Shown here: in pieces, positions 44,444 to 64,000 of the stretch
Layout of the letters: every line of letters begins with the position of its first letter
Numbering within the stretch: position 1 is the stretch's first letter
Source: a virus
Taxonomy: Duplodnaviria; Caudoviricetes
Direction: 5' to 3' (one strand)
IMG/VR virus record: IMGVR_UViG_3300032116_022045
Length of the DNA stretch: 64,000 nt
Notes under the pieces: model-generated
The model's input: only the letters and a program-made list of their open reading frames with translations
Database searches by the model: none
What the model was told of the DNA's origin: nothing
Translations under genes and position numbers: made by a program

Positions 44444-44475
44444 TATAAATATTCTAATATTACAATATATTTATA
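44444..44475. promoter_or_regulatory. Divergent pair of putative late promoters
   Basis: ATATTTATA on the minus strand (44444-44452) and on the plus strand (44467-44475), each facing its own operon. Confidence 0.55.
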
Positions 44476-44489
44476 ATAAAATATTTTTT

Positions 44490-45384: not shown

Positions 45385-45389
45385 AGAAT

Positions 45390-45764: not shown

Positions 45765-45767
45765 TTA

Positions 45768-46740: not shown

Positions 46741-46770
46741 ATTAATTATTTAAATGTTTTTTTTTTATTT

Positions 46771-46796
46771 AGGGGAATTTAAGTTCCCCTTTTTTA
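46771..46796 (+). terminator. Intrinsic terminator
   Basis: aggggaa/ttcccct stem followed by a U-run. Confidence 0.75.
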
Positions 46797-46870
46797 TTTA
46801 CAAATTACTTATTAAAGATTATAATTGTTAAGTAATAATAACAATAAAATAAAGAACATAATAAAAAATT

Positions 46871-48150
46871 ATGAATCAAATTAATAAACAAAAAACTACC
46901 CCTGTAGGTCGTAAATGTAAGGTACTTGTAGTCCCTTCAGACCGTACAGGGGTAGGTTAAATGGTTTTTTTAGGTCAACTAATCCACACATTGAATTAGA
47001 AAATAAATATCCTGACTTATTTAGTGTAGATATTGATTATGAACCACAATTAGATAATGATGAATGGTTAAAACAATATGATATTATTCATTATCATAGA
47101 ACTTTAGGTCCTTTTGAAACAATTCAAAATGTTTTAGATAGATGTAAAAAGCTAGGTATTGTTACTATTATGGATATTGATGATTATTGGGCACCAGGTA
47201 ATCACCACCCAGCTTATTTATTAATTAAAAATTCTGGTATGGATAAAAAAATTGAGAATAATCTAAGATATTCTCACAATATCACAACAACTACACCAAT
47301 ATTTGCTAAAGAAATAAGTAAATACAACAAGAATGTTTTTGTATTACCTAATGCAATTGATGAAAAAGAACCACAATTCATTCCAACACCAGTTACATCA
47401 GAAAAATTAAGGATTGGTTGGTTAGGAGGTTCATCCCATTTAAAAGATTTAGAAATTTTAAGTGGATTAGTTAATAGATTAAAAGCAGATGGTTTATTAG
47501 ATAAACTACAATTTGTTTTATGTGGATTCGATTTAAGAGGAACGCATACAGAAATTGATAAAAATACTGGACAACAAAGACAAAGACCTATTTTACCAAA
47601 AGAAAGTGTTTGGTATCTTTATGAAAAAATATTCACAGATGATTATAAAACAATTAGTCCAGAATATAGAGATTTTCTATTAAAATTTGTGCAAGAAGAA
47701 TATAAAGATGTTGAAAATGAACCTTATAGAAGAGTTTGGACTAAACACGTATCTAGTTATGCTACTAATTATAATTTATTTGATGTTTCACTTGCACCAT
47801 TAGAAGAAAATGTGTTTAATAAGAATAAGAGTCAATTAAAAGTTATTGAAGCAGGTTTTCATAAAAAAGCTTTAATAGCACAAAATTTTGGACCTTATCA
47901 AATTGATTTAGTTAATGTATTTAAGAGTGGTGGTGCAATAAATGAAAATGGTAATGCTATTTTAGTTGATTCTAACAGAAACCATAGTGATTGGTATAAA
48001 GCGATTAAAAGACTGATTAACAACCCTGAAGTAATCGATATTATGAAAAATAATTTAAGTAACTTGGTTAAAAGTACTTATAGTGTTGATGCTGTTAATG
48101 AGACAAGAAAAAATCTTTATTTATCTTTATTAGAGAAAAATAAAAATTAA
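46871..48150 (+). CDS. GT-B (GT4-like) glycosyltransferase interrupted by an in-frame TAA and a -1 frame change
   Basis: 46871-46960 encodes MNQ...KVLVVPSDRTGVG*. The -1 frame continues FFRSTNPHIELE...DIIHYHR...MDIDDYW...IGWLGGSSH...SLAPLEENVFNKNKSQLKVIEAG. Confidence 0.82.
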
Positions 48151-48151
48151 G

Positions 48152-48183
48152 TTGTTTTTTAGGGTTATTATTTAGTATATTTG
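48152..48183 (+). promoter_or_regulatory. Bacteroidota sigma70-type promoter for the HD-dut-glycan operon
   Basis: TTG-N21-TATATTTG. Confidence 0.65.
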
Positions 48184-48206
48184 TTTTGTAACAAAAAAAT
48201 AAATTT

Positions 48207-48764
48207 ATGTCTTTAGAACAATCAAAAATTATCGCTAACACAAAAAAGTATTTTGACACAGCGAACAAACACGGTTTTATGACCGATGACTTAATGAAAT
48301 TCTTGGGTGAGGATTTGATTAAAGCCCCTGCAACTAATTTAACATCATTATATGGTGCTTATGAAGGTGGTTTAATTGAACACATGCTAAGAGTGGCTAA
48401 ATATGCTGTAGCTGTTAATAATTCTTTATCAGAAGATGAAAGAGTAGATATGAGCAGTTTATTAAAAGTTTGTTTGCTACATCAAATTGGAAAAACTAAG
48501 TTATACATTCCATGTACTTCTGATTGGCACATTAAAAATCAAGGTAAAATGTATGATTACAACAATGACCTTACATCTATGAGAGTTGGTGAGCGAAGTG
48601 TTTATTATGCTCAAACTAATGGCGTTAAATTAACTGAAGAAGAATATTATGCTATCATCTCTTATGATAAGACTGAAGATAAAATGGCTGACTATCATAA
48701 TAGTTTACTTGGTGAACTTTTAAAAATGGGTAATACATTAGCAATTAAAACAGTAAAAAAATAA
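48207..48764 (+). CDS. HD-superfamily phosphohydrolase-like protein (HD appears as HQ)
   Basis: [10 protein letters not shown]...LLHQIGK...GERS. Confidence 0.6.
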
Positions 48765-48768
48765 TAAT

Positions 48769-49353
48769 ATGAAATTTAGTTTAGATTACATTAGAAAAAA
48801 GATAAACGATATTACTGATAGTAATAAAGATTATGGCGTTAATGATTTTGAAAATGAATTTTCAAAAACATTTGTTGGTGAAGGTTACGATTATGATTTG
48901 TTTAAATTAAATGTGGGTTTTAAAAACGAGTCAAATAATCCAGACCCAGAGTATGCTACTAATGGTTCTTCTGGTTTTGATTTAAGGGCTAATTTAAATG
49001 AATCAGTAACGTTAAAAAGCGGTAATAGAGCAATAATACCTACTGGTTTATATTTTGAGATACCAGAAAACTTTGAAATTCAAATTAGACCAAGGAGTGG
49101 TTTAGCAGCAAAAAATGGTGTTACTGTATTAAACACACCAGGAACAATTGATTCTGATTATACTGGTGAGATTAAAATAATTTTAATTAATCATGGTGAT
49201 GAAGATTTCACAATTAATCATGGTGATAGAATTGCTCAAGGTGTGTTAGCATCAGTATTAAATAAAAAAATTATTAAATTAACTAAACAAACTAACATTA
49301 CTTCTAATACTGAAAGAGGAAATGGTGGTTTTGGTTCAACAGGGATTCAATAA
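48769..49353 (+). CDS. dut: dUTPase (trimeric)
   Basis: [35 protein letters not shown]. Confidence 0.95.
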
Positions 49354-49364
49354 CTAAAATAAAT

Positions 49365-50366
49365 ATGAAAAGTAAATTCGATTTTAATGACATTCTAATT
49401 CAACCTGCGACCACATCAAAGATATCTAGTCGTAGTGAAGTAAATCCATACGTAAATGGTTATTTACCCTTAATAACAGCACCAATGGATACTGTTGTTG
49501 ATACTAATAACATAGATTTATATAGTTCACTAAAAATAAATGTTTGTTTACCTAGAGGTGAATATTATGTTGATAATAATGTGTTTATATCTTATTCATT
49601 AGATGATTTTATTTTTCTATATGAAGAAAAACTATTAAACAATAGTGGTAGTTATTTAATTGATATTGCGAATGGCCATATGGAAAAACTATTAACACAT
49701 GTTAGGTTATGTAAAGAAAAATATCCTAACATTAGGCTAATGGTTGGTAATGTTGCTAATCCAGAAACATATGTTGAATTATCAAATGCTGGTGCTGATT
49801 TAGTAAGATGTGGAATAGGTAATGGAAATGCATGTTCTACAACTTTACAAACTGGTGTTGGTTATCCTATGGCTTCTTTAATTCAAGAGTGTTATGACGC
49901 TTCATGTTTATTAGATAATCCAGCTAAAATCGTGGCAGATGGTGGTATGAAGAGTTATAGTGATGTTATTAAAGCATTAGCTTTAGGTGCTGATTATGTT
50001 ATGGTTGGCAGTATTTTTAATAAAGCTATTGAATCTTGTGGTGACAATTATTTATTTGGTAAAATTAAAGTAAGTCAAGAATTTGCTGAATTAGCTTATA
50101 GATACAAATTACCTGTTTATAAGAAATTTAGAGGTATGAGTACTAAAGAAGTTCAGAAAAAATGGGGTAAAGTAAAATTAACAACGTCTGAAGGTGTTAT
50201 TAGATATAGAAAAGTTGAATATCCTTTAAAAAAATGGGTAAATAACTTTGAAGATTATTTAAGAAGTGCTATGAGTTATACTGATTCTAAAACATTAAAT
50301 GAATTTATCGGTAATGTTAGTATAAATAAAATAACTAATAACGCATTTAACAGATTTAATAAATAA
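49365..50366 (+). CDS. GMP reductase / IMP dehydrogenase family protein (no CBS domains)
   Basis: ITAPMDTV, IDIANGH, GIGNGNACST catalytic Cys loop, IVADGG, FRGMST, LRSAMSY. Confidence 0.85.
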   Translation: MKSKFDFNDILIQPATTSKISSRSEVNPYVNGYLPLITAPMDTVVDTNNIDLYSSLKINVCLPRGEYYVDNNVFISYSLDDFIFLYEEKLLNNSGSYLIDIANGHMEKLLTHVRLCKEKYPNIRLMVGNVANPETYVELSNAGADLVRCGIGNGNACSTTLQTGVGYPMASLIQECYDASCLLDNPAKIVADGGMKSYSDVIKALALGADYVMVGSIFNKAIESCGDNYLFGKIKVSQEFAELAYRYKLPVYKKFRGMSTKEVQKKWGKVKLTTSEGVIRYRKVEYPLKKWVNNFEDYLRSAMSYTDSKTLNEFIGNVSINKITNNAFNRFNK

Positions 50367-50371
50367 AAAAT

Positions 50372-51562
50372 ATGGTTACAGTAGTTTGTTCATCACAAAA
50401 CCAATTAGATGAATTTAAAGAGCATGTTATTAAAACATCTGGTTTACATAATAAATTAGAGTTTTTAGGGTATGAAAACAAAGGTGAATTTTCATTAACG
50501 GAAATTTACAATCGTGGTTTGCGTGAAGCCAAAAATAACATTGTAGTTTTTATGCACGATGATATCATAATCGAAAAAAATAAATGGGCTGAAAAGATAA
50601 TCAAACTATTCGATAAAAACCCTGATTATGGTGTTATTGGCGTTGCTGGTACTAAATACTTATCAAGTAGTGGTAGATGGTGGGAAGACCCTAAAAAGAT
50701 GTATGGTAAGGTTTCACATACACATGAAGGTAAGACATGGTTATCATCATATTCTGAAGATTTGGGTAACGAATTAGAAGAAGTTGTTTTGGTAGATGGT
50801 GTTTTTTTTGCGGTAAATAAAGATAGACTTAAAAACAATTTTAATGAAGACGTTAAGGGATTCCATTTTTATGATGTTAATTTTTGTGTTGAGAATTACT
50901 TATCTGGGGTTAAAATTGGTGTTACAACACTGGTTAGAATTAACCATATGTCTATTGGTATGACAAACGATAAATGGGAAGAAAACAGACAAAATTTTGC
51001 TGATAAATTTAAAGAAAATTTACCGTTAACTATTAAAAAAGTTTTAAGGAAAAACGAAAAATTAAATATAATGTTTGTTTCTTTAACTTTTGATGATACA
51101 ACACAAAAAAGTAATATTATTTTAGAGCTTAGTAAAAAATTAAAGAATGAAGGTCATAATATAACAATTTGTTCAAATATGAATGGTAAATTACCAAATT
51201 TGGCTAAAAATAATAAAATAATTTTATCACCAATACAACAGCCACCTGGATTTTTATTAGGTGATGGTAATTGGAAAATGAATACACAACAAGGTGAAAT
51301 AATATCTCAAAAAAATACGTTATATAAAATTAAAGAAGAAAAATTTAATATTATCCATATTTTTGACGACAATATTATAGAACACTTTGTTAAATTATAT
51401 CCTAATTCAGTATTTGTTAATACTAAACAAAGTAATTCTTTATTTGTTAATGATAATAAAAATGAATTTGTTTCTGGTTCAATAAACATCAGCAATGATT
51501 TAAATGATATTATTAAATTACATGTTAATGAATTAATTAAAGAATATGAAAATTATTTATAA
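50372..51562 (+). CDS. GT-A (GT2-like) glycosyltransferase fused to a GT-B N-terminal-like domain
   Basis: SLTEIYNRGL...VFMHDD, DGVFFA, FHFYDV, and C-terminal NIMFVS...LELSKKLKNEGHNIT. Confidence 0.72.
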   Translation: MVTVVCSSQNQLDEFKEHVIKTSGLHNKLEFLGYENKGEFSLTEIYNRGLREAKNNIVVFMHDDIIIEKNKWAEKIIKLFDKNPDYGVIGVAGTKYLSSSGRWWEDPKKMYGKVSHTHEGKTWLSSYSEDLGNELEEVVLVDGVFFAVNKDRLKNNFNEDVKGFHFYDVNFCVENYLSGVKIGVTTLVRINHMSIGMTNDKWEENRQNFADKFKENLPLTIKKVLRKNEKLNIMFVSLTFDDTTQKSNIILELSKKLKNEGHNITICSNMNGKLPNLAKNNKIILSPIQQPPGFLLGDGNWKMNTQQGEIISQKNTLYKIKEEKFNIIHIFDDNIIEHFVKLYPNSVFVNTKQSNSLFVNDNKNEFVSGSINISNDLNDIIKLHVNELIKEYENYL

Positions 51563-52350
51563 TGGTTAAAATTGTATCTGGTTATTCTGAAAAAGGTGGT
51601 TCTACTTCAGCGTTAATTGATTTAACCAATGAATTAAATAATTATAAGATTGAAACTATTTTTTATGGTCCTCATAATTGGCATTTAGATAAATGTAATG
51701 CTAAAATATTGGATGATAGTTTAATAGTTAATAACGATGATATACTTATTTGTCATTTTTTACAATTACCTAGTAGACCAAATGCTAAAAAAGTTATATT
51801 AAGTTGTCATGAAAAATGGTGGTTTAAAGTAGGTGAAATTAAACAATATTGGGATATTGCTGTATTTTTACACGAAGAACATAGAAATTACCATAATAAT
51901 TATATTGGTGAGTCTATTATAATACCAAATCTAAAACCAAATCTAAAACCAAAAGATAAAAAAGACTTAGACTTAGTTGCTGGTATAATTGGTGCCATAG
52001 AAGATAGAAAACAAACACATATTTCTATAAAAAGAGCTTTATCTGATGGTTGCGAAAAAATAAAAATTTTTGGTAATATAAATGACCAAACATATTTTGA
52101 TTATTTTGTTAAACCATTATTGAATGATAATATTGAACTAATAGGATTTATAAATAATAAACAAGATATTTATGATTCAATTGGTCGTGTTTATCATTCA
52201 TCAAAAGGAGAAGTAGCTTGCTTAGTAAAAGATGAATGTTGGTTAACAAACACAAAATTTTTTGGTAATGAAGAAACTAATAATGAAGTTTCAACATTAA
52301 CCAATGAAGAAATTATAAATAAATGGAAAAAAATATTATTTAACTTATGA
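51562..52350 (+). CDS. GT-B (GT4-like) glycosyltransferase
   Basis: SEKGGSTSALIDLTNEL, IIGAIEDRKQ, GEVACLVKDEC. Confidence 0.65.
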   Translation: MVKIVSGYSEKGGSTSALIDLTNELNNYKIETIFYGPHNWHLDKCNAKILDDSLIVNNDDILICHFLQLPSRPNAKKVILSCHEKWWFKVGEIKQYWDIAVFLHEEHRNYHNNYIGESIIIPNLKPNLKPKDKKDLDLVAGIIGAIEDRKQTHISIKRALSDGCEKIKIFGNINDQTYFDYFVKPLLNDNIELIGFINNKQDIYDSIGRVYHSSKGEVACLVKDECWLTNTKFFGNEETNNEVSTLTNEEIINKWKKILFNL

Positions 52351-53063
52351 TAATACACGCACATATATTAGCATATAACGAAGAAAAGATATTACCCTTT
52401 ACTTTAGACTATTACTCACAATTTTGTGAAAAAATTTATATATATGATAATATGTCAACTGATAGTTCAGATGATATCTACAAGAAATACGATAAAGTTA
52501 ATGTTATAAAATGGGATAGTAATAATGAAATAAACGAAATTAATTATATAAATATAAAATCTAATTGTTACAAACAATATAGCAGACATGCTGATTGGGT
52601 TATTATATGCGATTGTGATGAGTTTTTATATCATAATAGATTAATAGACAAATTAAACTATTATAAAGAAAACAATATATCGGTACCAAAAATAAATGGG
52701 CATGATATGGTTAGTGAAACATTTCCAGTGTATGATGGTGAACTAATAACTAATAAAATAAAAATAGGTTCCGAAGTTTACCCACCATTTTGTAAAAATA
52801 TTATATTTAATCCTAAATTAGATGTTGAATATGGTATAGGTGGTCATTCATTTAATGCTAAAAATGCTGTATATTCAAATAGCCCTGAATTAAAATTATT
52901 ACATTATAAATTTTTAGGTATTGATTATGTTGAAAATATTTATAAAAATCGTGCAAAAAGACTAAGTAATTTTAATAAAGAAAATAGATTTGGTGAACAT
53001 TATTTTAATGTACCTTATGATTACATGAATAAATTATTATCTGAAAAAATAGAAGTAATATGA
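52347..53063 (+). CDS. GT2-like glycosyltransferase
   Basis: AYNEEKILPF, IYDNMSTD, WVIICDCDEF (DxD), LLHYKF. Confidence 0.75.
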   Translation: MIIHAHILAYNEEKILPFTLDYYSQFCEKIYIYDNMSTDSSDDIYKKYDKVNVIKWDSNNEINEINYINIKSNCYKQYSRHADWVIICDCDEFLYHNRLIDKLNYYKENNISVPKINGHDMVSETFPVYDGELITNKIKIGSEVYPPFCKNIIFNPKLDVEYGIGGHSFNAKNAVYSNSPELKLLHYKFLGIDYVENIYKNRAKRLSNFNKENRFGEHYFNVPYDYMNKLLSEKIEVI

Positions 53064-53878
53064 AAAAAATATTAATATCAGATTTTACAATAAATGAAAT
53101 TCCTCATGGTGGTTCAGAATGGGTTAATGAGGTATTAATTGATAATTTTAATTTAGAATTTGAATATTCACAAAATGTTAATAGTTTTGATATAAATAAT
53201 TTTTATATTATATCAAATATTTCACTAATGCGACCAGATTTAGTAAGACAAATACCTAATTTAAATTACATTATAATTGAGAATGATTATAAAATATGTC
53301 AATCAAGGCATCCATGGCGTTGGCCAGATTCAATAATACCAAAGAATGAAAGAATAAACTATGATTTATATAAAAACGCTAAAGCTGTGTTTGTTCAAAC
53401 AAACGACCATTTAAGAGTTTTTAAAATTAATGATGTTAACGCTAATTTTGTTAATTTACATTCATCAATATGGTCAGAAAATGATTTAAATTTATTAGAA
53501 AAAATTTTAAATAACACTAATGATAAAAACGGATATTATGGTATTTATGAAACAAATAATTGGATTAAAAACACAAACGGTGCGATAGAATATTGTAAAA
53601 ATAACAATTTTAATTATAAATTAATACCTAATAACCATAATAGAGAAGTTTTTTTATCTGAAATTGCAAATTGTTCTCATTTAGTTTTTTTACCAATCGC
53701 TAGAGAAACTTTTTGTAGATTAGTTGTGGAAGCTAAATGTATGGGTGTTAATGTGATAACAACAAAAAACTACGGAGCTTCATTAGAGGGTTATTTCGAA
53801 ATGATTGGTCAAGAATTAATTGATTTTTTAAGAGAACAAACTAAAGATAATTTAAAAAAAATAAATAATTACATATGA
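53060..53878 (+). CDS. GT-B-like glycosyltransferase
   Basis: PHGGSE, IENDY, FLPIARETFCRLVVEAKCMG. Confidence 0.65.
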   Translation: MKKILISDFTINEIPHGGSEWVNEVLIDNFNLEFEYSQNVNSFDINNFYIISNISLMRPDLVRQIPNLNYIIIENDYKICQSRHPWRWPDSIIPKNERINYDLYKNAKAVFVQTNDHLRVFKINDVNANFVNLHSSIWSENDLNLLEKILNNTNDKNGYYGIYETNNWIKNTNGAIEYCKNNNFNYKLIPNNHNREVFLSEIANCSHLVFLPIARETFCRLVVEAKCMGVNVITTKNYGASLEGYFEMIGQELIDFLREQTKDNLKKINNYI

Positions 53879-54771
53879 TAACAAGACTAAAAGATTTTTT
53901 TATAACTAAATTGACATTATTTTTAATGTCTATTTCAAAAATAGAAAAAGAAACTTTAACAAATCAAAACAAATCTTCTAACGATAACAAAAATAACGAT
54001 AGGAGAGCAACACAAGGTCAATTAGCTGACTCATTATTAAATGGTGAAATAACAAAAGAAGTTGAAAATTTTAGATGGAGAACATATAAAATATTAAGAC
54101 AAATTGAAGGGTTAGAATCAACTATAATTGGTTATGATGATGATGGTTTTCCGATAGTAGAAACTAAAAAAATAAATAGGAAAGAATCATTATCAAAAAT
54201 AAAATTAGATGAATATGATAATTATGAATTAGAAATGGTTGTTGATAATACCCCAATAACTGTTTCTATTGCTGACACCCTAAAAACAATTAATGATGAC
54301 GAATTAATTGATGAAATACAGCATAATGCTAATTTTAAGAATACTTACCCTTTAACCATAAAAAGAAAAATAATATCAAGTTTTGACATTGAAAAATATA
54401 CTAAAAAGTTAAATGTTAGAATTATTGATAATAATAAAAGATTATTAGAGTTCTATATAAGCAAATATCCAGATATAGAAAATAAGACACATAAATTATT
54501 CATCAATAAATTGAAAAAAACTATTGATAATCCAAATAGTAGTAATATTTTTAATATAGATAGCGTTTATTTTATAACTAACAAAACGATTGGCGTTGTT
54601 GATTTATTAGAATTTGAATTTAATAATTTAATATATGATAAGACAATTGAATTTGATGGTTATTACGTTGTTAAATTTGTAGGTGAAATAGAAAAAAATG
54701 GTTTGGATTTAACTAACAAATATTTAAACGAAAAATTAGAAATCAAATACGATAATAAAGTTAAGAAATGA
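53875..54771 (+). CDS. Hypothetical protein embedded in the glycan island
   Basis: 298-aa ORF overlapping both neighbours, with no glycosyltransferase motif recognised. Confidence 0.6.
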   Translation: MITRLKDFFITKLTLFLMSISKIEKETLTNQNKSSNDNKNNDRRATQGQLADSLLNGEITKEVENFRWRTYKILRQIEGLESTIIGYDDDGFPIVETKKINRKESLSKIKLDEYDNYELEMVVDNTPITVSIADTLKTINDDELIDEIQHNANFKNTYPLTIKRKIISSFDIEKYTKKLNVRIIDNNKRLLEFYISKYPDIENKTHKLFINKLKKTIDNPNSSNIFNIDSVYFITNKTIGVVDLLEFEFNNLIYDKTIEFDGYYVVKFVGEIEKNGLDLTNKYLNEKLEIKYDNKVKK

Positions 54772-55505: not shown

Positions 55506-56208
55506 TGATTTTGACTATTTTTGGGGTTTAATCGAAAATAATAATAATTTTACTTTCACAAGATATGCTGATGGTGAAGTTATGTTAATGAATGGTATAT
55601 CAGTAAAAGAAGGTACACAAGCATACAATGTTGATAAATGGTCAGCGCCAACTGGTTTAACAAAAGTTGGCAGAGAATTAATTGAAAGTTTAAATCATAT
55701 CGAAGATAATTATTATTACGCCATATCATCAAAAACAGATAACATAAATGATTATTCATTTTTAAGAAATAATATAAAACAAAATGATGATAAAATAACT
55801 TTTGTAAACCTTTGGATTAATGCTAATTATGGTAAATCAATCGAAAAATATAAATCCTTAAAAAGAGATGTAACATTAATTTGCAATTATAAAGCTAAAA
55901 AAGAAAACTTCCCATTTAAAGTTAATAAAATTTATCCTTTCCCAAATAATTGTGTTGAATATTGGGAAACTAGTGGTGATAATTTTATTGAAATGTTATT
56001 AACTGATTTTGGTTATAAACAAAATGAATTGTTTTTTATTTCTTGCGGTCCTATTTCAGAGATTATTATAGATAAACTATATCGTAACAACCCAAATAAC
56101 ACTTACGTTGATGTAGGGTCTTCTATTGACGAATTTGTGCATGGTTATAAAACTAGACCTTACATGTATGATAACACTATTTACAGTAAAATGATTTCTA
56201 GTTTTTAA
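55489..56208 (+). CDS. Putative GT-D-fold (DUF1792-like) glycosyltransferase
   Basis: FTFTRYADGE, FFISCGPISEII...YVDVGSSID. Confidence 0.5.
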   Translation: MEKFNSDFDYFWGLIENNNNFTFTRYADGEVMLMNGISVKEGTQAYNVDKWSAPTGLTKVGRELIESLNHIEDNYYYAISSKTDNINDYSFLRNNIKQNDDKITFVNLWINANYGKSIEKYKSLKRDVTLICNYKAKKENFPFKVNKIYPFPNNCVEYWETSGDNFIEMLLTDFGYKQNELFFISCGPISEIIIDKLYRNNPNNTYVDVGSSIDEFVHGYKTRPYMYDNTIYSKMISSF

Positions 56209-56209
56209 A

Positions 56210-56902
56210 ATGATACAAGTAGTATATACGCATAGTAATTGCTCTGATTTATGGGAGATGTTTATTGAACAAAATAAAAAACACATAGGTTGGCCAATAT
56301 TTTTTATAACTAATAAATTAATACCTAATTATCCAGAAGATAGTCAGTACATCTACAATGACACTGACAATTATTCTGATGTTTGGATATCTGTATTAAA
56401 TAAAATTAATTCTGAATTTTTTATTTATTTACAAGAAGATTTTATTTTATATAATGACGCTAACATAAATAAAATTAATGATTACACTAACTTTTTAAAA
56501 AATAGTGATTATTCATTTGTAAGATTAATAAAATCTGGTGACATCAATCAAAAAATAACTGAAACACTGTATGAAATTTCTTCATCAAACCAATTTATTT
56601 TTGCTATGCAAACAACTATATGGAAAACAAAAGACTATATAAAAATTTTAGAAAACGTACATGAAGAAAAATGGTTAGAAACAGATGGATATAAAAATTA
56701 TATGTCACAAAATAATATAAAAGGTTTATCACATTATGATAGTGAACCAAAAAGAGGTGGTAACCATTCGGATAGTAATGTCTATCCTTACATAGCAACA
56801 GCTTTGGTTAAAGGTAAATGGATACTTTCAGAATATCCCAACGAATTAACACCAATTCTAACTAATTACGGAATCAATCAAAACATACGAGGTGTAATAT
56901 AA
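56210..56902 (+). CDS. Putative GT-A-like glycosyltransferase
   Basis: YTHSNCSDLW, FIYLQEDFIL, QTTIWK. Confidence 0.5.
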   Translation: MIQVVYTHSNCSDLWEMFIEQNKKHIGWPIFFITNKLIPNYPEDSQYIYNDTDNYSDVWISVLNKINSEFFIYLQEDFILYNDANINKINDYTNFLKNSDYSFVRLIKSGDINQKITETLYEISSSNQFIFAMQTTIWKTKDYIKILENVHEEKWLETDGYKNYMSQNNIKGLSHYDSEPKRGGNHSDSNVYPYIATALVKGKWILSEYPNELTPILTNYGINQNIRGVI

Positions 56903-56945
56903 CAATAAGTATTTACTATAACGTTAAAAAGAATATATTTGTAAT

Positions 56946-57707
56946 ATGAAATACATTGCATTAAACTACAGTTATGACTTAAATAAAATGGTCGATATTG
57001 GTCGAAAATGGGCTTTTGATATCTATAAAAATGATGATTTTATTTGTGATTATTCAGCAGCTTCATATGCAACGTTTATTGATAAAAATCCAACTAAACT
57101 TCTTTATCTTTATTGTGACAACATTGAAAAAATGAAGTCTAAAATGAATCATTATAACATTGACCAAGATAGAATAATTTATATTGATTACAGTGATGTT
57201 ATAAGACAATACGGTAATGATTTATCATATAGTTTTACAGTATTAAACGATTTTATAAACAATGCGAAATCTGATAAAGAATATACTATAAAAATTGATA
57301 ATGATTTAATTTTTAAAGAAGAATTACCAGAACCAGACCCAAATAGTATTATGGTTTGGAAATATGAAAGAATAGTTAAAAACGGTGATGTAAGATGGGG
57401 TGAAATTAAAATATGTAATGAAGTACTTAATGATTTAGATTTTAAAATTTATAATTTAGGATTATTTGGGTTACCTCATGATTATCAAAAACATGAGGCC
57501 AAAGAAATAATGGATAAAATGATTTCGGTTGATATTTCTGATGTCACTGATGTTGATTCTAAAATTTATCATTGTTGTGAACAAACAGCTAACAATTATG
57601 TATTTCATAAATACGGTTATAATATTATTGAAACGTATCAATATGTTGACCACAATTTTGACAATAAAGGTAAATGTATTACCGATGCTAAATATTTAAA
57701 AAAATAA
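56946..57707 (+). CDS. Putative GT-A-like glycosyltransferase
   Basis: IKIDNDLIF (DxD-like), YNLGLFG, CEQ. Confidence 0.5.
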   Translation: MKYIALNYSYDLNKMVDIGRKWAFDIYKNDDFICDYSAASYATFIDKNPTKLLYLYCDNIEKMKSKMNHYNIDQDRIIYIDYSDVIRQYGNDLSYSFTVLNDFINNAKSDKEYTIKIDNDLIFKEELPEPDPNSIMVWKYERIVKNGDVRWGEIKICNEVLNDLDFKIYNLGLFGLPHDYQKHEAKEIMDKMISVDISDVTDVDSKIYHCCEQTANNYVFHKYGYNIIETYQYVDHNFDNKGKCITDAKYLKK

Positions 57708-57709
57708 TT

Positions 57710-58789
57710 ATGAATAACGGAATATCTATAATTGGGGTTGGTAAATTAGGATTATGTTTAGGTCTTAATTTAGAACGAAAAGGTTACAATATACTAGGGG
57801 TTGATTTATCAGAAGAATATATTAATTTGTTAAATAATAAAGAATATAAAACAGAGGAACCATATGTTGAAGAATATTTGAAAAATAGTAAAAATATTTT
57901 ATTTACCACTGATTTGAAAAAATCATTAGAGAATGATGTTTTATTTATCGTTGTTCAAACCCCATCAACAACTGATTGGCAATATGACCATTCAAATATT
58001 GATAAGATATGCAATACATTTATTTCTTTTGGAGTACAAAAAACTAGAAAAGATTTAATAATAAACTCAACAACATTTCCAGAATACTGTGAAAAATTAC
58101 ATGAGAAAATGGTTAAGTATAATTTTCATATTTCTTATAACCCAGAATTTATTGCTCAAGGTTCTATAATTAAAGACCAAATTAATTGTGATAACGTTTT
58201 AATTGGAGAATGTGATATTATGGCTGGTAATTTAATTCAATCTATTTATGAAAATATGTGTGAGTCAAACCCTATTATGAATAGAATGAGTTTAACAGAA
58301 GCTGAATTAACAAAAATAGCAGTTAATTGTTTTCTAACAACTAAAATTAGTTACGCCAATATGATTGGCGATATTGCCGAAAGATTAAATTGCGATTCAA
58401 ACACTATATTAAATGCTGTTGGTTCAGATTCAAGGATTGGAGTTAAATACCTAAAACATGGTTTTGGTTTTGGTGGTCCTTGTTTCCCTAGAGACAACCG
58501 AGCATTATCAAATTGTGCCTCAAAAGTTGGGATTGATGCTGTTATATCCAAAGCAACTGACGAAATGAATAATAAACATTTAGAATACCAAATTGAAAAC
58601 TTTGTTAAAAACAATCCTAATAAAGACAATGAGGTAGAAATTGAATATGTCACATATAAAAAGGATAGTACCATCATTGAAGAATCACAACAATTAAGAT
58701 TTGCTGTTAGGTTAAAAGAATTAGGATATAAAATAAAATTATTAGATAATAGGGTTGAAGTTATTAAACAATTAAATAATATGTTATGA
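57710..58789 (+). CDS. ugd: UDP-glucose/GDP-mannose 6-dehydrogenase family protein
   Basis: GVGKLG, VQTP, YNPEFIAQG, AELTKIAVNCFLTTKISYAN, GFGGPCFPRD. Confidence 0.9.
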   Translation: MNNGISIIGVGKLGLCLGLNLERKGYNILGVDLSEEYINLLNNKEYKTEEPYVEEYLKNSKNILFTTDLKKSLENDVLFIVVQTPSTTDWQYDHSNIDKICNTFISFGVQKTRKDLIINSTTFPEYCEKLHEKMVKYNFHISYNPEFIAQGSIIKDQINCDNVLIGECDIMAGNLIQSIYENMCESNPIMNRMSLTEAELTKIAVNCFLTTKISYANMIGDIAERLNCDSNTILNAVGSDSRIGVKYLKHGFGFGGPCFPRDNRALSNCASKVGIDAVISKATDEMNNKHLEYQIENFVKNNPNKDNEVEIEYVTYKKDSTIIEESQQLRFAVRLKELGYKIKLLDNRVEVIKQLNNML

Positions 58790-59544
58790 AATTAAATGAA
58801 GAAATTAGTGAATGGTTAAAAAGCTATTTAATTAATAATAAATTAGATTGTTTTGTTATTGGTATTAGTGGCGGTGTAGACTCGGCTCTAACATCAATTT
58901 TATGTGCCATTACTGGTGTTAAAACAATAGTTGTAAGTTTACCTATAAGACAAAATAAAGAACAGTTAAATAGGGTCACTAACCATATTAAATGGTTAAA
59001 AGAACGTTTTAGTAATGTTAAATCATATGAGATAGATTTGACCAAAACTTTTAACACGTTTGAACAATTGTTTGATGATAAAAATGAATTAGCATTAGCT
59101 AATTCAAGGTCTAGATTAAGAATGACTACTTTATATCAAATAGCTGGTTCGAATAAAGGATTAGTTGTTGGGACTGGAAATAAAATTGAAGATTTTGGTA
59201 TTGGTTTTTTTACTAAATATGGAGACGGTGGTGTAGATATCTCACCAATAGCTGATTTATTAAAAAGTGAAGTTTTTACTATGGCTAAAGAACTTGGTGT
59301 TATCGATGAAATAATAAACGCAAAACCAACAGATGGTTTATGGGATGATAACCGTAGTGATGAAGACCAAATTGGCGCTACATATGACGAACTAGAAAAA
59401 ATAATGACTTACACTGGGTCATTAAAAAATTTAACAGAAAGAGAATTAGAAGTGTATAACATTTACACTAGACTAAATAAATTAAATAAACATAAAATAA
59501 CACAAATTCCAATTTTTAAAAAAAATGAAATACACGCAAATTAA
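58786..59544 (+). CDS. nadE: NH3-dependent NAD+ synthetase
   Basis: GISGGVDS, NSRSRLRM, VGTGNKIE, GFFTKYGDGG, KPTDGL, DEDQIGATYDELE. Confidence 0.92.
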   Translation: MKLNEEISEWLKSYLINNKLDCFVIGISGGVDSALTSILCAITGVKTIVVSLPIRQNKEQLNRVTNHIKWLKERFSNVKSYEIDLTKTFNTFEQLFDDKNELALANSRSRLRMTTLYQIAGSNKGLVVGTGNKIEDFGIGFFTKYGDGGVDISPIADLLKSEVFTMAKELGVIDEIINAKPTDGLWDDNRSDEDQIGATYDELEKIMTYTGSLKNLTERELEVYNIYTRLNKLNKHKITQIPIFKKNEIHAN

Positions 59545-60142
59545 TTTATATACAGGGGATGATTATAAAGATTACGAAAAAGCAACAGTAGACCTATTTA
59601 GAGGTTTGATTAAAGATGACTGGACTGTATTTGATTGTGGTGCTAAAACTGGTTTTTTCACATTACTATTTTCAGAATTATGTGAAAATGGTATGGTTCA
59701 TGCATTTGAACCTACATCAACATTTGACATGTTAGTTAACAATATAAATCATTATGGTATTAGCAATACAATATTAAATAAACTAGCATTAGGTGATAAA
59801 TCTGGTAGTATAGAAGACGAGATTTTCAGAATATGGGGGCAACCATCTGAAAGAATGGTTTACGATTTTATAACAATTGATGATTATTGTGAAAAAAATA
59901 AAATTGAACGATTAGATTTTATAAAAATAGACGTTGATTCATACGATTTTGATTTATTAAAAGGTGCGGTAAAAACATTAAATAAATTAAAACCAATGAT
60001 AACTGTTGAATTAAACTATGCGCTTAACTTTAGAAATGCAACTGAACAAGAGGTTATTGATTGGTTGGTAACTAAAGAATATTCATTAGCTTATGTGACT
60101 AATGACCAAAATCATACATTTATTCATAATAATAAACTTTAA
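59525..60142 (+). CDS. FkbM-family SAM methyltransferase
   Basis: VFDCGAKTG, VHAFEP, ITIDDY...DFIKIDVDSYD...GA. Confidence 0.85.
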   Translation: MKYTQINLYTGDDYKDYEKATVDLFRGLIKDDWTVFDCGAKTGFFTLLFSELCENGMVHAFEPTSTFDMLVNNINHYGISNTILNKLALGDKSGSIEDEIFRIWGQPSERMVYDFITIDDYCEKNKIERLDFIKIDVDSYDFDLLKGAVKTLNKLKPMITVELNYALNFRNATEQEVIDWLVTKEYSLAYVTNDQNHTFIHNNKL

Positions 60143-60143
60143 T

Positions 60144-60722
60144 ATGACACAAGGTGCTTTAGAAGATAACTTTGTTTATCAAGAATTTAAAAATTTAATT
60201 AAAAAATTTAATATTAAAAAAATTATTGAAACTGGAACTTATTATGGTTGGTCAACTATGAAATTAGCTGAGTTTGGTATTGATGTTACCACTATAGAAT
60301 ATTCGGAAAAAAATTACAATATTGCTGTTAGTAATTTTAATAAAACAAACTTTACAAATATACAAGCAATATTTGGAAGTTCACCAGATATTTTAGATAA
60401 GATTCTAACTAATGATGATAATGACACTATTTTGTTTTTAGATGCTCACTGGTACGAATACTGGCCAATACACGATGAACTTAGGGTTTGTATAAAAAAG
60501 AAAATTAAACCAGTTATAATAATACATGATTTTTTTGTACCAGATGAAAATGGTAACCCTAAATTTGGGTTTGATAAATATGGTGAACAAAGTTTGGATT
60601 TTAATTATATTAAATCTTTTTTGGATGAAATATATGGTGTAAACAATTATGATTATCATTATAACGAAGAATCAGATAATGTGGGACAAGGAGTTATTTA
60701 TATATATAAAAAAAATGGATAA
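60144..60722 (+). CDS. Class I SAM-dependent methyltransferase
   Basis: IIETGTYYG, GSSPDIL, FLDAHW, IIIHDF. ATG at 60144 preferred over 60102. Confidence 0.75.
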   Translation: MTQGALEDNFVYQEFKNLIKKFNIKKIIETGTYYGWSTMKLAEFGIDVTTIEYSEKNYNIAVSNFNKTNFTNIQAIFGSSPDILDKILTNDDNDTILFLDAHWYEYWPIHDELRVCIKKKIKPVIIIHDFFVPDENGNPKFGFDKYGEQSLDFNYIKSFLDEIYGVNNYDYHYNEESDNVGQGVIYIYKKNG

Positions 60723-61428
60723 AAAAATTATAGATAAGTTGTTTTCACATATTCTGGAAAACAATAAAATAAAAATACCAACATGGGTTAAACGTGTTAA
60801 GTTAGACGTTGGCACATCATTAAATGCACCTAACTCTCAAAAATGGTTAGAAAGTGATTCTGAACTTTGTGTTTTTGGTTTTGAACCTAACATTTATAAC
60901 CTACAAATTTTACACACTGGAATACATAGATGGCCAATAAAATTAGATTTAGATAAAATTAATAAATCTTTTTTTTATGTTAATTGTGCATTATCAGATA
61001 TTATAGCTGAAAATGTTGATTTTTATTGTACCGATTATGAAAACCCTGGTACCTCTAGTTTATTTAAACCAACTATGACAAACGTTGATGTTGTAACTAA
61101 AGTATCTGTAATTAGATTATCTGATTTTTTTGATTTGTTTCCGTGGGAATCGATTCAATATATTGACCAAGTTAAAATTGATGCACAATCAGCTGATTTT
61201 AATATTGTAAGAGGTATGGGTGATTATTTAGCAGATAGAGTTGTTTATTTAGATGTTGAAGCAACAACTAATGGACAATATGAAAACGTTGAAGACCCTA
61301 GTGGGTTAAAAGAATATATTGAATATAAAGGTTTTGAATGCTTAGAGTGGGGGATGAACGCTAGATTTCGTAACCGTAAATTTTCAGATATATACGATAA
61401 AATTAATTATATATTTTTAAACGATTAA
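60715..61428 (+). CDS. FkbM-like methyltransferase
   Basis: LDVGTS, VFGFEP, VKIDAQSAD. ATG at 60715 preferred over 60649. Confidence 0.7.
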   Translation: MDKKIIDKLFSHILENNKIKIPTWVKRVKLDVGTSLNAPNSQKWLESDSELCVFGFEPNIYNLQILHTGIHRWPIKLDLDKINKSFFYVNCALSDIIAENVDFYCTDYENPGTSSLFKPTMTNVDVVTKVSVIRLSDFFDLFPWESIQYIDQVKIDAQSADFNIVRGMGDYLADRVVYLDVEATTNGQYENVEDPSGLKEYIEYKGFECLEWGMNARFRNRKFSDIYDKINYIFLND

Positions 61429-61429
61429 T

Positions 61430-62158
61430 ATGAATGTTACTAATTGCGTAAGAGGTGATGGCTTTGGTGCACAATATCAAAACATAATATGGGCTATTAT
61501 ATATGCCGAACAACATAATTATAATTTTTATTATACTCCGTTTAGTTCTATGGAACATAATTATGAAAACAACTCTGAATTTTTAGATAAAAAAGAAAAA
61601 TTAATAAACATCATAAATAATTTCCCAATAGTTTCAGAACTACCACCAAACACAAATGTTAAACAACTTTGTGGTGGTTTAGACGGTGTTAATTTTAATG
61701 AGATAGAAAATAATTTAACTAATTCGTTTAGTTTTTCGTCATTTAAAAAAATAAAAAAATGTCTACACGCAAATAAAACATCAATGTTTGATAATAATTT
61801 AATAAATGTTGCGGTGCATGTTAGAAAACAAAATAATCATGATAATCACACATTAGGTATATGTGGTGATGATTATTTTTTAGATGTAATGAATCATATA
61901 AGAAACACACATAATGGTGAAAAGATTTTTCATATTTACTCACAAGGTGAAGAAAAAGATTTTTTACACTTTAAAAATGATGATGTTGTATTTCATTTAA
62001 ATGAACCAATTGAAGAAACTTTTTACTCGATGGTTACAGCTCAAATTTTAGTGATGTCTAAAAGTTCTTTGAGTTATACAGCTGGAATGTTAAGCGATGG
62101 TATTGTTTATTATTTACCATTTTGGCATAAACCAGCATCAACATGGATAATAAAATAA
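61430..62158 (+). CDS. GT11-like (alpha-1,2-fucosyltransferase-like) glycosyltransferase
   Basis: DGFGAQ, VAVHVRK, FHIYSQG, MVTAQILVMSKSSLSYTAG. Confidence 0.6.
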   Translation: MNVTNCVRGDGFGAQYQNIIWAIIYAEQHNYNFYYTPFSSMEHNYENNSEFLDKKEKLINIINNFPIVSELPPNTNVKQLCGGLDGVNFNEIENNLTNSFSFSSFKKIKKCLHANKTSMFDNNLINVAVHVRKQNNHDNHTLGICGDDYFLDVMNHIRNTHNGEKIFHIYSQGEEKDFLHFKNDDVVFHLNEPIEETFYSMVTAQILVMSKSSLSYTAGMLSDGIVYYLPFWHKPASTWIIK

Positions 62159-62172
62159 AATAAAAAAAAAAA

Positions 62173-62709
62173 ATGGAAGAAAAATTTTTAAGTATTATAG
62201 CAGAAGGTAATGAACTAGAAGCACATAAAAAATATTCATCAACATGTAAAGACGTGATTGTAGAAATAGGTGTATTATTTGGTCAAACGACAAAAGTAAT
62301 ATTAGAAAACACTACAGCTAAAGTTTATGGTATAGACCCAATCATCCCAGACTCAATGAATAGCGCTTTAATTGGTGATGTACATAAAATAAAAGAATTG
62401 GAAACTATTCACCCTAATTTTATATTTATAAAAGATTATAGCTTTAATGTTGTTAAAAATTGGGATAAAAAAATTGATTATATTTTTATAGATGGTGACC
62501 ACACATATAATGCGGTAAAACAAGATTTTGAAGATTGGTACCCACATGTTAAATCTGGTGGTATAATTTCAATACATGATTCATCCGCTAATAGACGTGG
62601 ACCATCATTTTGGCCTGGACCATCAAAATTAGCTGATGAATTAATAAAGGATGATAGGTTAGAATACATTGAAACATTAACAGCATTAACAATTTTTAAA
62701 AAGAAATAA
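62173..62709 (+). CDS. Class I SAM methyltransferase (Methyltransf_24-like)
   Basis: IVEIGVLFG, IDYIFIDGDHTYNAVKQDF...GGIISIHD. Confidence 0.85.
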   Translation: MEEKFLSIIAEGNELEAHKKYSSTCKDVIVEIGVLFGQTTKVILENTTAKVYGIDPIIPDSMNSALIGDVHKIKELETIHPNFIFIKDYSFNVVKNWDKKIDYIFIDGDHTYNAVKQDFEDWYPHVKSGGIISIHDSSANRRGPSFWPGPSKLADELIKDDRLEYIETLTALTIFKKK

Positions 62710-62710
62710 T

Positions 62711-63742
62711 ATGAAAAAAATACTAATATTAGGCGGTGGTGGTTTTATAGGTGGTCACTTAGCCAAAAAATTAAAATCTCAAGGTAATTGGGTTAGAGTC
62801 GTTGATTTAAAAGAACACGAATACTTTACTAAAGAAGAAATATCAGATGAGTTCATTGTTGGTGATTTAAGAGACCCAATGCTTGTTTCTAGAGTTATGT
62901 TCGCACCTAACCAAATTAGTTTAGATGATAAAATTAATTCATTCGATGAAGTTTATCAATTGGCTGCTGATATGGGTGGTGCTGGTTATATTTTTACTGG
63001 TGAACATGATGCTGATGTAATGCATAACTCAGCTTTAGTTAATTTAAACGTTGCTAAAGAAGCAACACGTATGAGTGTTAAAAAATTATTTTATTCATCC
63101 TCTGCTTGTATGTACCCAGAACATAATCAATTAGACCCTAACAATCCAAATTGTGAAGAATCTTCAGCCTATCCAGCTAATCCAGATTCTGAATATGGTT
63201 GGGAAAAATTGTTTAGCGAAAGACTTTATTTATCATTTATGCGTAATTATGGTTTAAATGTTAAAATAGCGAGATTTCACAATATATTTGGTCCACAAGG
63301 TACTTGGAAAGGCGGTAAAGAAAAAGCACCAGCAGCTATGTGTAGAAAAGCGGCTGAAACACCAGATGGAGGTATTTTAGAAGTATGGGGTGATGGTTTA
63401 CAAACACGTTCATTTCTTTATATTGATGAATGTGTTGAAGCTATTTTAAGACTTATGAATAGCGATTTTAGTGGACCAGTTAATATAGGGTCTGAAGAAA
63501 TGATAACCATAAATCAATTAGCGCAAATGGCCATTGATTTAAGTGGTAAAAATATTAAAATAAAAAACATTTATGATGATGAATTTATGATTAAGTATGG
63601 TCATAAATGTCCAACTGGTGTTAAAGGTAGAAATTCAGATAATAAATTATACCAAGAAAAAATCGGGTGGGTTGTTAACCAACCATTAAAAAACGGTATG
63701 ATTAAAACATTTGAATGGATTAACGAAAAAGTAAAAAAATAA
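62711..63742 (+). CDS. GDP-mannose 3,5-epimerase-like NAD-dependent epimerase
   Basis: GGGGFIG, QLAADMGGAGYI, YSSSACMYP, YGWEK, RFHNIFGP.GTWKGGKEKAPAA, GVKGRNSDN. Confidence 0.82.
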   Translation: MKKILILGGGGFIGGHLAKKLKSQGNWVRVVDLKEHEYFTKEEISDEFIVGDLRDPMLVSRVMFAPNQISLDDKINSFDEVYQLAADMGGAGYIFTGEHDADVMHNSALVNLNVAKEATRMSVKKLFYSSSACMYPEHNQLDPNNPNCEESSAYPANPDSEYGWEKLFSERLYLSFMRNYGLNVKIARFHNIFGPQGTWKGGKEKAPAAMCRKAAETPDGGILEVWGDGLQTRSFLYIDECVEAILRLMNSDFSGPVNIGSEEMITINQLAQMAIDLSGKNIKIKNIYDDEFMIKYGHKCPTGVKGRNSDNKLYQEKIGWVVNQPLKNGMIKTFEWINEKVKK

Positions 63743-63745
63743 ATA

Positions 63746-64000
63746 ATGGATTATAAAGGACATATAGGGAATTATATAGTACCAGATGATACAAAAAACG
63801 GTATTTGTGTAGATATTGGTGCTAATTATGGTAATTTTATTGAAAAATATAATAATCATTTTAAAGAGATTCATTACGTAGAAGCGTTAAAGCATGTTTA
63901 TGACTCTATTAACGAAAAATTTAAAAACCATACAAATGTTTTTGGTAATAATAGGGCTGCTTGGTCAAAAAGTAATATAAAATTAAAAATGGTTTCACAT
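63746..64000 (+). CDS. FkbM-like methyltransferase, partial (runs off the right edge)
   Basis: Missing from the ORF track and translated by hand: MDYKGHIG...CVDIGANYG...HYVEALK. Confidence 0.75.
   Translation, partial: MDYKGHIGNYIVPDDTKNGICVDIGANYGNFIEKYNNHFKEIHYVEALKHVYDSINEKFKNHTNVFGNNRAAWSKSNIKLKMVSH

Follow-up and report, generated by a model that had tools for sequence, protein, structure and literature searches.

A virus record of IMG/VR (IMGVR_UViG_3300032116_022045; Duplodnaviria, Caudoviricetes) holds a stretch of DNA of 64,000 nucleotides (nt), here called the window, whose end, from position 46871 onwards, is occupied by a dense block of genes for glycan synthesis. We find that this block is very probably a functional, phage-owned system that builds a glycan in the cytoplasm, and that its left part (46871-50364) is conserved, while the rest (50365 to ~64315) forms a replaceable cassette, swapped between strains that are otherwise nearly identical. 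The full proposal, in which this glycan factory has the phage's own virion proteins as its target, we put at a probability of about 0.4. An original prediction made from the sequence had described a glycan-building island at this position, and its glycan enzymes proved real, but five interleaved genes (encoding an HD-domain protein, a dUTPase, a GMP-reductase-like protein, a NadE-type enzyme and one unknown protein of 298 amino acids [aa]) are not glycan enzymes, and the first glycosyltransferase gene of the block is interrupted.

Gene content and integrity of the block

The open reading frame (ORF) map places 22 plus-strand genes between 46871 and the end of the window, close to the 20 or so contiguous genes that had been predicted, with overlaps or gaps of <=57 nt. 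DNA past the window edge was read from metagenome contigs that match the window at 100% identity, and including the ~345 nt found there the contiguous block is ~17.5 kb long. The expectation that the island continues past the edge was true, though the contiguous block does so by only ~0.35 kb and then gives way to phoH; the order on this side is the last FkbM methyltransferase, phoH, three unknown genes, a conserved 261-aa GT2 transferase ~3 kb past phoH, and genes with late motifs, and a weak baseplate-hub match lies among the genes beyond the 261-aa GT2. The left boundary is formed by an intrinsic-terminator hairpin, and right behind it lies the region's best sigma-70-like promoter match (Table 1); the total of such promoters is at or below the shuffle expectation, and this best hit is used for its position only. 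Nine glycosyltransferase (GT)-like ORFs and one more possible one, five methyltransferases (three FkbM, one Methyltransf_24 and one class I O-methyltransferase-like), a nucleotide-sugar dehydrogenase and a homologue of GDP-mannose 3,5-epimerase (GME) make up the glycan enzymes of the block. This inventory, obtained from family, profile and fold searches for the transferases and from Pfam/NCBIfam for the methyltransferases, bears out the roughly ten ORFs of GT-A, GT-B, GT-D-like and GT11-like types and the five methyltransferases proposed earlier, as well as the nucleotide-sugar dehydrogenase, which passes its cut-off, and the epimerase, which is a full-length GME homologue.

Sequence-family assignment is solid for four of the transferases (46871-48150, 50372-51562, 52347-53063, and 54768-55505). 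The second of these, a GT2_5 enzyme, is found in every relative, frequently fused to a GT4 domain, and its gene shares 87% nt identity with that of an alternative strain. The 262-aa ORF that follows (51562-52350) is without a sequence family and owes its assignment as GT-B to the fold of a predicted model only, which matches the GT4 enzymes TarM, HepE, BshA and PimB' (Foldseek probability 1.0). It belongs to a family of 697 homologues, the best 120 of which are 61-99% identical, with no Pfam entry and no match in cultured phages. BLASTP found no similarity of this ORF to either the GT4 domain of the complete relative G001 (described below) or a 272-aa ORF, and in another relative (L008, 10001-11878) its homologue is fused with GT2_5 in a 625-aa protein. 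The Pfam family PF01531 was recognized in 9 of 120 homologues of the GT11-like ORF (61430-62158), and sequence searches of the unfamiliar island ORFs against PDB, PHROGs and NCBIfam returned no matches. The 298-aa protein stays within the cassette in G001, in the relative L002 and in the alternative strain. Its structural model (mean confidence, pLDDT, 75) gave no Foldseek match in PDB at E <= 0.001; in BFVD it matched one uncharacterized myovirus protein alongside weak gp15-like rows, in VIA-align the best Z was 6.6 with tail-tube/neck, split-barrel and PilZ-like rows intermixed, and in the Atlas shape search all values were below TM 0.4.

The enzymes of sugar-nucleotide metabolism allow a chemistry to be proposed. 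The match of the epimerase to GME is clearly ahead of the next family, UDP-glucuronate decarboxylase (E 4e-26), and an enzyme of this sequence would epimerize GDP-mannose to GDP-L-galactose or GDP-L-gulose. The dehydrogenase (57710-58789), whose second-best solved relative is GDP-mannose 6-dehydrogenase, would oxidize a hexose nucleotide to the corresponding hexuronic acid, and the NadE-type enzyme would either amidate this uronate or supply the dehydrogenase with NAD. Nine or ten soluble transferases of GT-A, GT-B, GT-D-like and GT11-like types would then assemble an oligosaccharide, which the five methyltransferases would methylate. Because the GT11 family uses GDP-L-fucose, a close analogue of GDP-L-galactose, the GT11-like enzyme encoded two genes upstream of the GME homologue is a candidate L-galactosyl transferase. 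In the cyanophage S-SSM7 (L050, 21924-23844) a NadE gene likewise lies next to a dehydrogenase gene inside a glycan cluster, as it does at 57710-59544 of the window, and identities to S-SSM7 are 59% for GME (SSSM7_253), 50% for NadE and 39% for the dehydrogenase, the other island genes having no further match in that cluster. The recurrence of this pair suggests that the NadE-type enzyme would work together with the dehydrogenase, and their product may be a sugar uronamide instead of NAD.

All ORFs of the block are intact except the first GT-B gene (46871-48150). Codon usage of the block correlates with that of the rest of the phage at r 0.94, against 0.93 in a within-phage control of two halves, G+C content at third codon positions is 0.153 in the block versus 0.128 in the rest, and the block is 99.9-100% identical among independent assemblies. 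A decaying or recently captured host locus was considered and is ruled out by this phage-like codon usage together with the integrity of the ORFs. The original prediction had held that a decaying host locus absent from related phages would count against it: the distal 14 kb are indeed absent from relatives, yet the same slot holds other glycan cassettes there. None of the listed sources of a 10-kb stretch of the island is recorded as RNA, and two metatranscriptome runs carry 5-15% of the sampled GME-gene words.

The interrupted GT-B gene reads 29 codons, then TAA, and then a frame change at 46958-46962 (...GGT TAA AT GGT...). Strains 98.7-99.4% identical carry an uninterrupted 411-aa allele; intact alleles are without the extra 8 nt (GGTTAAAT) of the window and also have a different 5' end, to which the segment 46829-46962 of the window is wholly unlike. 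Just 5' of the internal stop lies a strong hairpin (46896-46955; -30.8 kcal/mol, z -3.9). Since the interrupted form occurs in three independent assemblies (the window, L042, and L043), it is not a single assembly error, and it may be either a dead allele or one that is read through via a ribosomal hop.

Table 1. Positions of genes, boundary signals and motifs in the window, with further sites in relatives where given
Feature	Position	Strand	Remarks
Intrinsic-terminator hairpin	46771-46790	+	left boundary of block
Sigma-70-like promoter match	46797-46825	+	TTTACA-17-TATAAT
GT-B (GT4-like) glycosyltransferase	46871-48150	+	phrog_7162, E 2.7e-43; interrupted in this strain
HD-domain phosphohydrolase	48207-48764	+	Pfam; TTTAGTATATTTG promoter-like motif upstream
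dUTP diphosphatase, canonical	48769-49353	+	passes NCBIfam equivalog cut-off
GMP-reductase/IMPDH-family TIM-barrel protein	49365-50366	+	below equivalog cut-offs; last gene of conserved left part
GT-A glycosyltransferase, Glyco_tranf_2_5 (GT2_5)	50372-51562	+	E 1.8e-34; C-terminal extension; first cassette gene
Compact GT-B (GT4-like), 262 aa	51562-52350	+	AF2 model, pLDDT 91; Foldseek probability 1.0
GT-A glycosyltransferase, Glyco_tranf_2_4 / GT92-like	52347-53063	+	GT2_4, E 1.1e-15
Probable small GT-B	53060-53878	+	weak Glycos_transf_1 (GT1) match at C-terminus, 3.4e-4
Conserved 298-aa phage protein	53875-54771	+	291 homologues, no Pfam
GT-A glycosyltransferase, Glycos_transf_2	54768-55505	+	GT2, E 9.7e-12
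GT-D / GT-D-like glycosyltransferase candidate	55489-56208	+	Atlas features, score 0.96; among phage clusters with such domains
GT-A-fold protein, phage-specific family	56210-56902	+	TM 0.58-0.76 to GT2/GT8 clusters
253-aa protein, possible transferase	56946-57707	+	weak GT8 / DUF6734 lead
Nucleotide-sugar 6-dehydrogenase (UDP-Glc / GDP-Man dehydrogenase family)	57710-58789	+	passes NDP-sugar dehydrogenase cut-off; short C-terminal domain
NadE-type NAD synthase-family ATP pyrophosphatase	58786-59544	+	start overlaps dehydrogenase stop
FkbM methyltransferase	59525-60142	+	
Class I O-methyltransferase-like	60102-60722	+	
FkbM methyltransferase	60649-61428	+	
GT11-like (fucosyltransferase-like) transferase	61430-62158	+	weak GT11 match, 3.9e-4
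Methyltransf_24 / CmcI-like methyltransferase	62173-62709	+	
GME homologue	62711-63742	+	E 7e-90, 305 bits to 2c59, residues 3-343
FkbM methyltransferase, 199 aa	63746-64000 (5' part)	+	last cassette gene; ends ~345 nt beyond window
[ST]-G-x-T-rich genes	21851-24691, 25052-31180, 40801-42657, 42657-44423; G001 118433-147512		
ATATTTAT(A) sites	17740, 21773, 24740, 35474, 44452, 44467; L045 7670-7690, 12344-12352, 15800-15815		
10-mer AGTATATTTG	1811-1820, 3446-3455, 14255-14264, 40298-40307, 48174-48183		aimed at downstream gene

Cassette replacement among related phages

The relative G001, a 368-kb IMG/VR contig (CheckV 100%), is collinear with positions 1-51.5 kb of the window at 36-74% amino-acid identity, including the fiber genes, five small ORFs, and the GT-B, HD, dUTPase, GMP-reductase-like and GT2_5 genes. 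Its slot between GT2_5 and phoH is smaller and holds a GT2_5+GT4 fusion, a GT2 with a methyltransferase, a TOD1/MUCI70-like protein, a homologue of the 298-aa protein and a GT25, and no homologues of window positions 51562-53878 or 54768-64000 were found anywhere in G001. Other relatives share the same frame (GT-B, dUTPase and GT2_5 on one side, the phoH-side genes and the conserved GT2 on the other) and differ in the contents of the slot. Conservation throughout the lineage is seen for the genes of GT-B and GT2_5. In L002 the slot encodes a UDP-GlcNAc 2-epimerase, GT2 and GT1 enzymes, an SDR epimerase and an RmlD-like reductase; in L006 it encodes a UDP-galactopyranose mutase, DUF707, GT15-like and RXYLT1-like proteins, a hexapeptide acetyltransferase, a GFO/IDH/MocA oxidoreductase and a Methyltransf_24 enzyme. 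Within the left part, three relatives (L004, L006, and L008; ~8700-9420) have a 232-aa PolB-exonuclease-like protein (DNA_pol_B_exo2) in place of the HD gene.

Replacement was also seen at the level of strains. Contigs whose HD protein is identical to that of the window are of two types, either window-like or alternative (L038-L040, L051). The left flank of the alternative type (43395-50364) is 98.8-99.4% identical to the window and the right flank (64316-68404, in extended coordinates) 99.2% identical, and between them window positions 50365-64315 (13.95 kb) are swapped for 9.6 kb that encode a 187-aa protein, a GT2_5+GT4 fusion, a 298-aa homologue, GT25, GT10, GT2, FUT8-like and FkbM enzymes, and unknowns. 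Only the 5' part of GT2_5 (87%) and the 298-aa gene (93%) can be aligned between both cassettes, and a third cassette arrangement was found in another sample. Judged by this swap between near-identical flanks, the slot is at the level of sequence a cassette locus with fixed break points that behaves like bacterial O-antigen loci.

Acceptor of the glycan

We scanned for transmembrane segments by comparing hydrophobic 19-residue segments with a threshold, and found no transmembrane-grade segment in the glycan enzymes of the window, where the sole above-threshold value lies in the soluble NadE fold. None was found in the cassette ORFs of the window, G001, L006, L008, L038, and L045; three segments at or above the threshold occur in other relatives: L009 has one at the N-terminus of its GT2_5 homologue, L003 one in a 96-codon frame that lies within its GT2_5 gene, and L002 one in its SDR epimerase. 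Across five cassette variants there was no Pfam match for an initiating phosphoglycosyl transferase, flippase, polymerase, ligase or ABC exporter. The lack of membrane segments together with that of initiating and export genes therefore favors a cytoplasmic acceptor, and action on host lipid-linked intermediates is compatible with it as well.

Such an acceptor may be the phage's own exposed virion proteins (the fibers, the LamG-like protein and the insertion domains of the sheath), which would be glycosylated in the cytoplasm before or during assembly, and strains would then differ in the sugar coat of the particle. Several features hint towards the virion: the slot sits beside the tail-fiber genes both in the window phage and in G001, GT-B and GT2_5 are kept lineage-wide, and downstream of phoH, which has a late-like ATATTTAT motif of its own, there is another conserved GT2. 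In addition, strong over-representation of the motif [ST]-G-x-T is confined to the sheath insertions, two fibers and the LamG-like protein (z 5-16), with observed versus expected counts of 8 vs 1.6 in the sheath insertions, 61 vs 10.5 in the 2042-aa fiber, 11 vs 1.4 in the 618-aa protein and 8 vs 1.6 in the 588-aa fiber. When 166 ORFs of G001 are ranked for the motif, the orthologues of these proteins come first, and sites fall on shared alignment columns of window and G001 in 5/8 and 8/11 cases, the remainder having turned over.

The promoter-like motifs of the phage bear on when the block is expressed. The motif ATATTTAT(A) is located 20-35 nt upstream of the sheath, fiber and other structural genes, of a small-ORF operon starting at 44490, of phoH and of the downstream baseplate-side genes, and is likely a late-promoter element; it is the reverse complement of the T4 late TATAAATA. 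There is no late-like ATATTTAT at promoter positions in 46871-64000; the late 9-mer ATATTTATA occurs inside genes at 52936 and 62422, but is rejected as a promoter there since it is within chance expectation. The second motif, TTTAGTATATTTG, precedes five genes, among them those for the DNA polymerase and the HD protein, and all five occurrences of the 10-mer AGTATATTTG are intergenic, where ~0.7 would be expected by an estimate from base composition. Both fit the Bacteroidota -7 promoter element TAnnTTTG, and AGTATATTTG hints at a Bacteroidota host and a non-late promoter class. Having only the TTTAGTATATTTG class of motif, the island may be expressed early or in the middle of infection.

Such timing would be the first of several points that weigh against virion proteins as the acceptor, as it speaks mildly against a system expressed purely late and coupled to the virion. 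The [ST]-G-x-T enrichment could fit a sequon and could equally be a feature of fiber-type domains. The conserved GT-B is interrupted in this very strain, and the adjacent fiber gene, whose product is a candidate acceptor, is 98.8% identical between strains with different cassettes and shows no sign of co-variation with the cassette. The GT25, GT11 and GT10 families are typical of lipopolysaccharide (LPS) and O-antigen decoration, and the only homologous module in a cultured phage is the 'LPS cluster' of S-SSM7, usually read as host-surface modification.

These last points lead to the alternative that survives best, although we consider it somewhat unlikely: that soluble phage transferases and methyltransferases remodel undecaprenyl-linked O-antigen, capsule or LPS-core intermediates of the host, whose own machinery exports the product. 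Over the long infection by a jumbo phage, the resulting change of the cell surface might serve superinfection exclusion, help progeny to get free of debris or protect against grazers, and cassettes would vary as host strains vary. Such a role agrees with the presence, in the 'LPS cluster' of S-SSM7, of orthologues of GME, NadE and the dehydrogenase, FkbM enzymes join GT25, GT11-like and GT10 as families common in LPS/O-antigen pathways, and an early/middle-type promoter motif suits action well ahead of lysis. The missing membrane proteins are compatible with it, most O-antigen transferases being soluble, and the literature reads such clusters as genes of cell-wall synthesis or modification (PMC12801897; PMC3037559). 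On the other hand, the five cassette variants contain no initiating transferase, flippase, polymerase, ligase or exporter, the two transferases kept lineage-wide look intrinsic to the phage rather than like a host-matched accessory, and strains with different cassette types are 98.8% identical in the fiber gene, which serves as a proxy for host range.

It is rather improbable that the block has no single product at all and is a recombination hot spot gathering unrelated auxiliary genes of nucleotide, NAD and sugar metabolism, each of which would have its own point of action, be it host metabolism, a soluble acceptor or a protein outside the virion, while some may be neutral filler for headful packaging. 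The HD, dUTPase, GMP-reductase-like and NadE genes are mixed with the glycan genes, the first transferase is interrupted in this strain and the slot content turns over quickly, all as this explanation would have it, and 'stuffer DNA' has been raised for cyanophage clusters by Sullivan et al. (PMC3037559). However, the content of the cassettes is not random, as all variants examined are dominated by glycosyltransferases, sugar-nucleotide enzymes and methyltransferases; the remaining ORFs are intact, tightly coupled and of phage codon usage, several families are strongly conserved (such as that of the 262-aa GT-B), and the NadE-dehydrogenase pair is seen again in a distant phage.

The weakest explanation, hypermodification of DNA, we regard as very improbable. 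Transferases would here glycosylate modified bases as a protection against restriction, while the HD, dUTPase and GMP-reductase-like proteins tune nucleotide pools, and the strain-level turnover of cassettes would fit an arms race with modification-dependent nucleases. As in T-even phages, whose DNA is glucosylated through the gp42 hydroxymethylase and alpha- and beta-glucosyltransferases, transferases (here GT-B and GT2_5) stand beside or interleaved with nucleotide-metabolism genes under a non-late, replication-type promoter motif, and phage transferases reportedly make diverse DNA glycans (Pyle et al. 2024, as cited in PMC12619734). The island nevertheless consists of other transferase families, with far more enzymes and with methyltransferases: the T4 alpha- and beta-glucosyltransferase families were unmatched, and Pfam scans of the island ORFs gave GT2, GT1, GT11 and GT2_5 transferase families only. 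No thymidylate-synthase-fold hydroxymethylase was found in the window, as the original prediction had stated, and its argument that simple T-even DNA glucosylation is a poor fit holds, given too many transferases and O-methyltransferases and no hydroxymethylase in the window. The complete relative G001 has a single thymidylate-synthase-fold gene, with 309 bits to the thymidylate-synthase family, which keeps the ...PFNIASY... motif that presumably holds the dUMP-specific Asn; no TET/JBP match was found in G001 by a search that had no positive control, and the dUTPase is canonical. To our knowledge, no DNA glycan involves as many as nine to ten transferases and five O-methyltransferases together with a GDP-L-galactose pathway. 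We also note that the G001 thymidylate synthase (76677-77774, L015) lies in a 377-codon frame with a long insertion, in which ...LPPCH... is kept as well as ...PFNIASY....

With virion proteins as the acceptor, a more specific proposal can be formulated, which we offer tentatively and consider unlikely in its full form: the slot would be an O-antigen-like serotype locus of the particle, such that lake jumbo phages 99% identical outside the slot exchange whole glycan cassettes and wear different methylated rare-sugar coats (of L-galactose or L-gulose and a uronic acid or uronamide) on fibers and sheath decorations at [ST]-G-x-T-type sites.

Phage context, known systems and significance

The window is of low G+C content (23-32%) and comes from a large tailed phage. 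Apart from the tail sheath (21851-24691) and a tail fiber with an endosialidase-chaperone domain (42657-44423), it encodes a family-B DNA polymerase (36637-40281), a baseplate-hub-like protein and a helicase, and the sheath, baseplate and fiber genes identify the phage as a myovirus. It has no close kin among cultured phages: the sheath reaches 31-38% identity in its best matches, which are to a Microcystis phage, a Flavobacterium phage and an uncultured phage of 484 kb. Cyanophage sheaths match at ~31-36% over a third to half of the sheath length, cyanophage nucleotide similarity across the 17-kb island is confined to one stretch of 245 nt, and on nucleotide, sheath and promoter-motif evidence the phage does not group with the Kyanoviridae (T4-like cyanophages). 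A search of the window for tRNA genes found 0. Several freshwater metagenomes (JGI, ENA, and Logan) hold contigs 99.9-100% identical to the window. The operon of five small ORFs that separates the fiber gene from the island has a late-type motif and is kept in G001; one of its genes (45768-46202) encodes a WYL-domain protein.

Large LPS gene clusters have been described near hli03 or phoH in S-SSM7, P-SSM2 and S-SM2, where function versus filler was left open (PMC3037559), S-SCSM2R carries 13 transferases and 22 cell-wall-related genes (PMC12801897), and four core transferase orthogroups occur in aquatic 'moraphages' with predicted Bacteroidota hosts (PMC12619734). The clusters of these cyanomyoviruses (S-SSM7, P-SSM2, S-SM2, S-SCSM1, and S-SCSM2R) resemble the island in bringing together many glycosyltransferases, nucleotide-sugar enzymes and methyltransferases in a plastic region of a lytic myovirus, in the adjoining phoH (in P-SSM2 and here), and in homologous GME, NadE and dehydrogenase with the NadE-dehydrogenase adjacency in both. 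In contrast, the island belongs to a low-GC freshwater jumbo phage of another lineage with Bacteroidota-type promoter motifs, most of its transferases are without a cyanophage homologue, and its cassette boundaries and strain-level replacement have been mapped.

Virion proteins are glycosylated by virus-encoded soluble enzymes in chloroviruses, Megavirinae and mycobacteriophages, and a characterized GT-D enzyme builds a protein O-glycan. The giant viruses (capsid N-glycans of PBCV-1 with the transferase-methyltransferase A064R; fibrils of Megavirinae), share with the island their own nucleotide-sugar pathways, soluble transferases and O-methyltransferases, the lack of lipid-carrier and export genes, and a conserved core with strain-variable decoration. 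Their hosts are eukaryotic and their virion glycan is proven, whereas the island is known from its genes and is likened to them by gene logic. Virion glycosylation has reportedly been established for mycobacteriophages (Freeman et al. 2023, PMC10527164). In mycobacteriophages, phage transferases, some with methyltransferases, are encoded near structural genes as in the island and modify capsid and tail proteins within the cytoplasm, but these systems comprise 2-6 genes without a nucleotide-sugar module, in other hosts and in phages of siphovirus morphotype, and the likeness is one of organization. Bacterial O-antigen and capsule loci offer the closest parallel in architecture, a hypervariable set of transferases and sugar-nucleotide enzymes (among them GT25, GT11, GT10 and FkbM families) between conserved flanks with cassette exchange between near-identical genomes; unlike them, the island has no phosphoglycosyl transferase, Wzx, Wzy, WaaL, ABC transporter or membrane protein, and its codon usage is phage-type.

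Large glycan clusters in big phages have been known since the genomes of P-SSM2 and S-SSM7. What is new here is the core-plus-cassette map, with a conserved core and a replaceable unit of 10-14 kb between fixed break points; the replacement of this unit between strains 99% identical in their flanks, a sign that the product is under strong diversifying selection; and a three-gene module (GME, NadE-type enzyme and dehydrogenase) common to a marine cyanophage, which provides concrete enzymes for assay. If the acceptor is the virion, the cassettes would amount to a serotype-like glycan diversity of particles, with a bearing on phage ecology, particle stability and recognition, and if the slot were indeed a serotype locus, there would be an unrecognized selective agent that reads particle glycans, such as lectin-like defenses of the host, grazers or particle adhesion. 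If instead the acceptor is the host surface, these cassettes would be major loci of host reprogramming in lytic phages.

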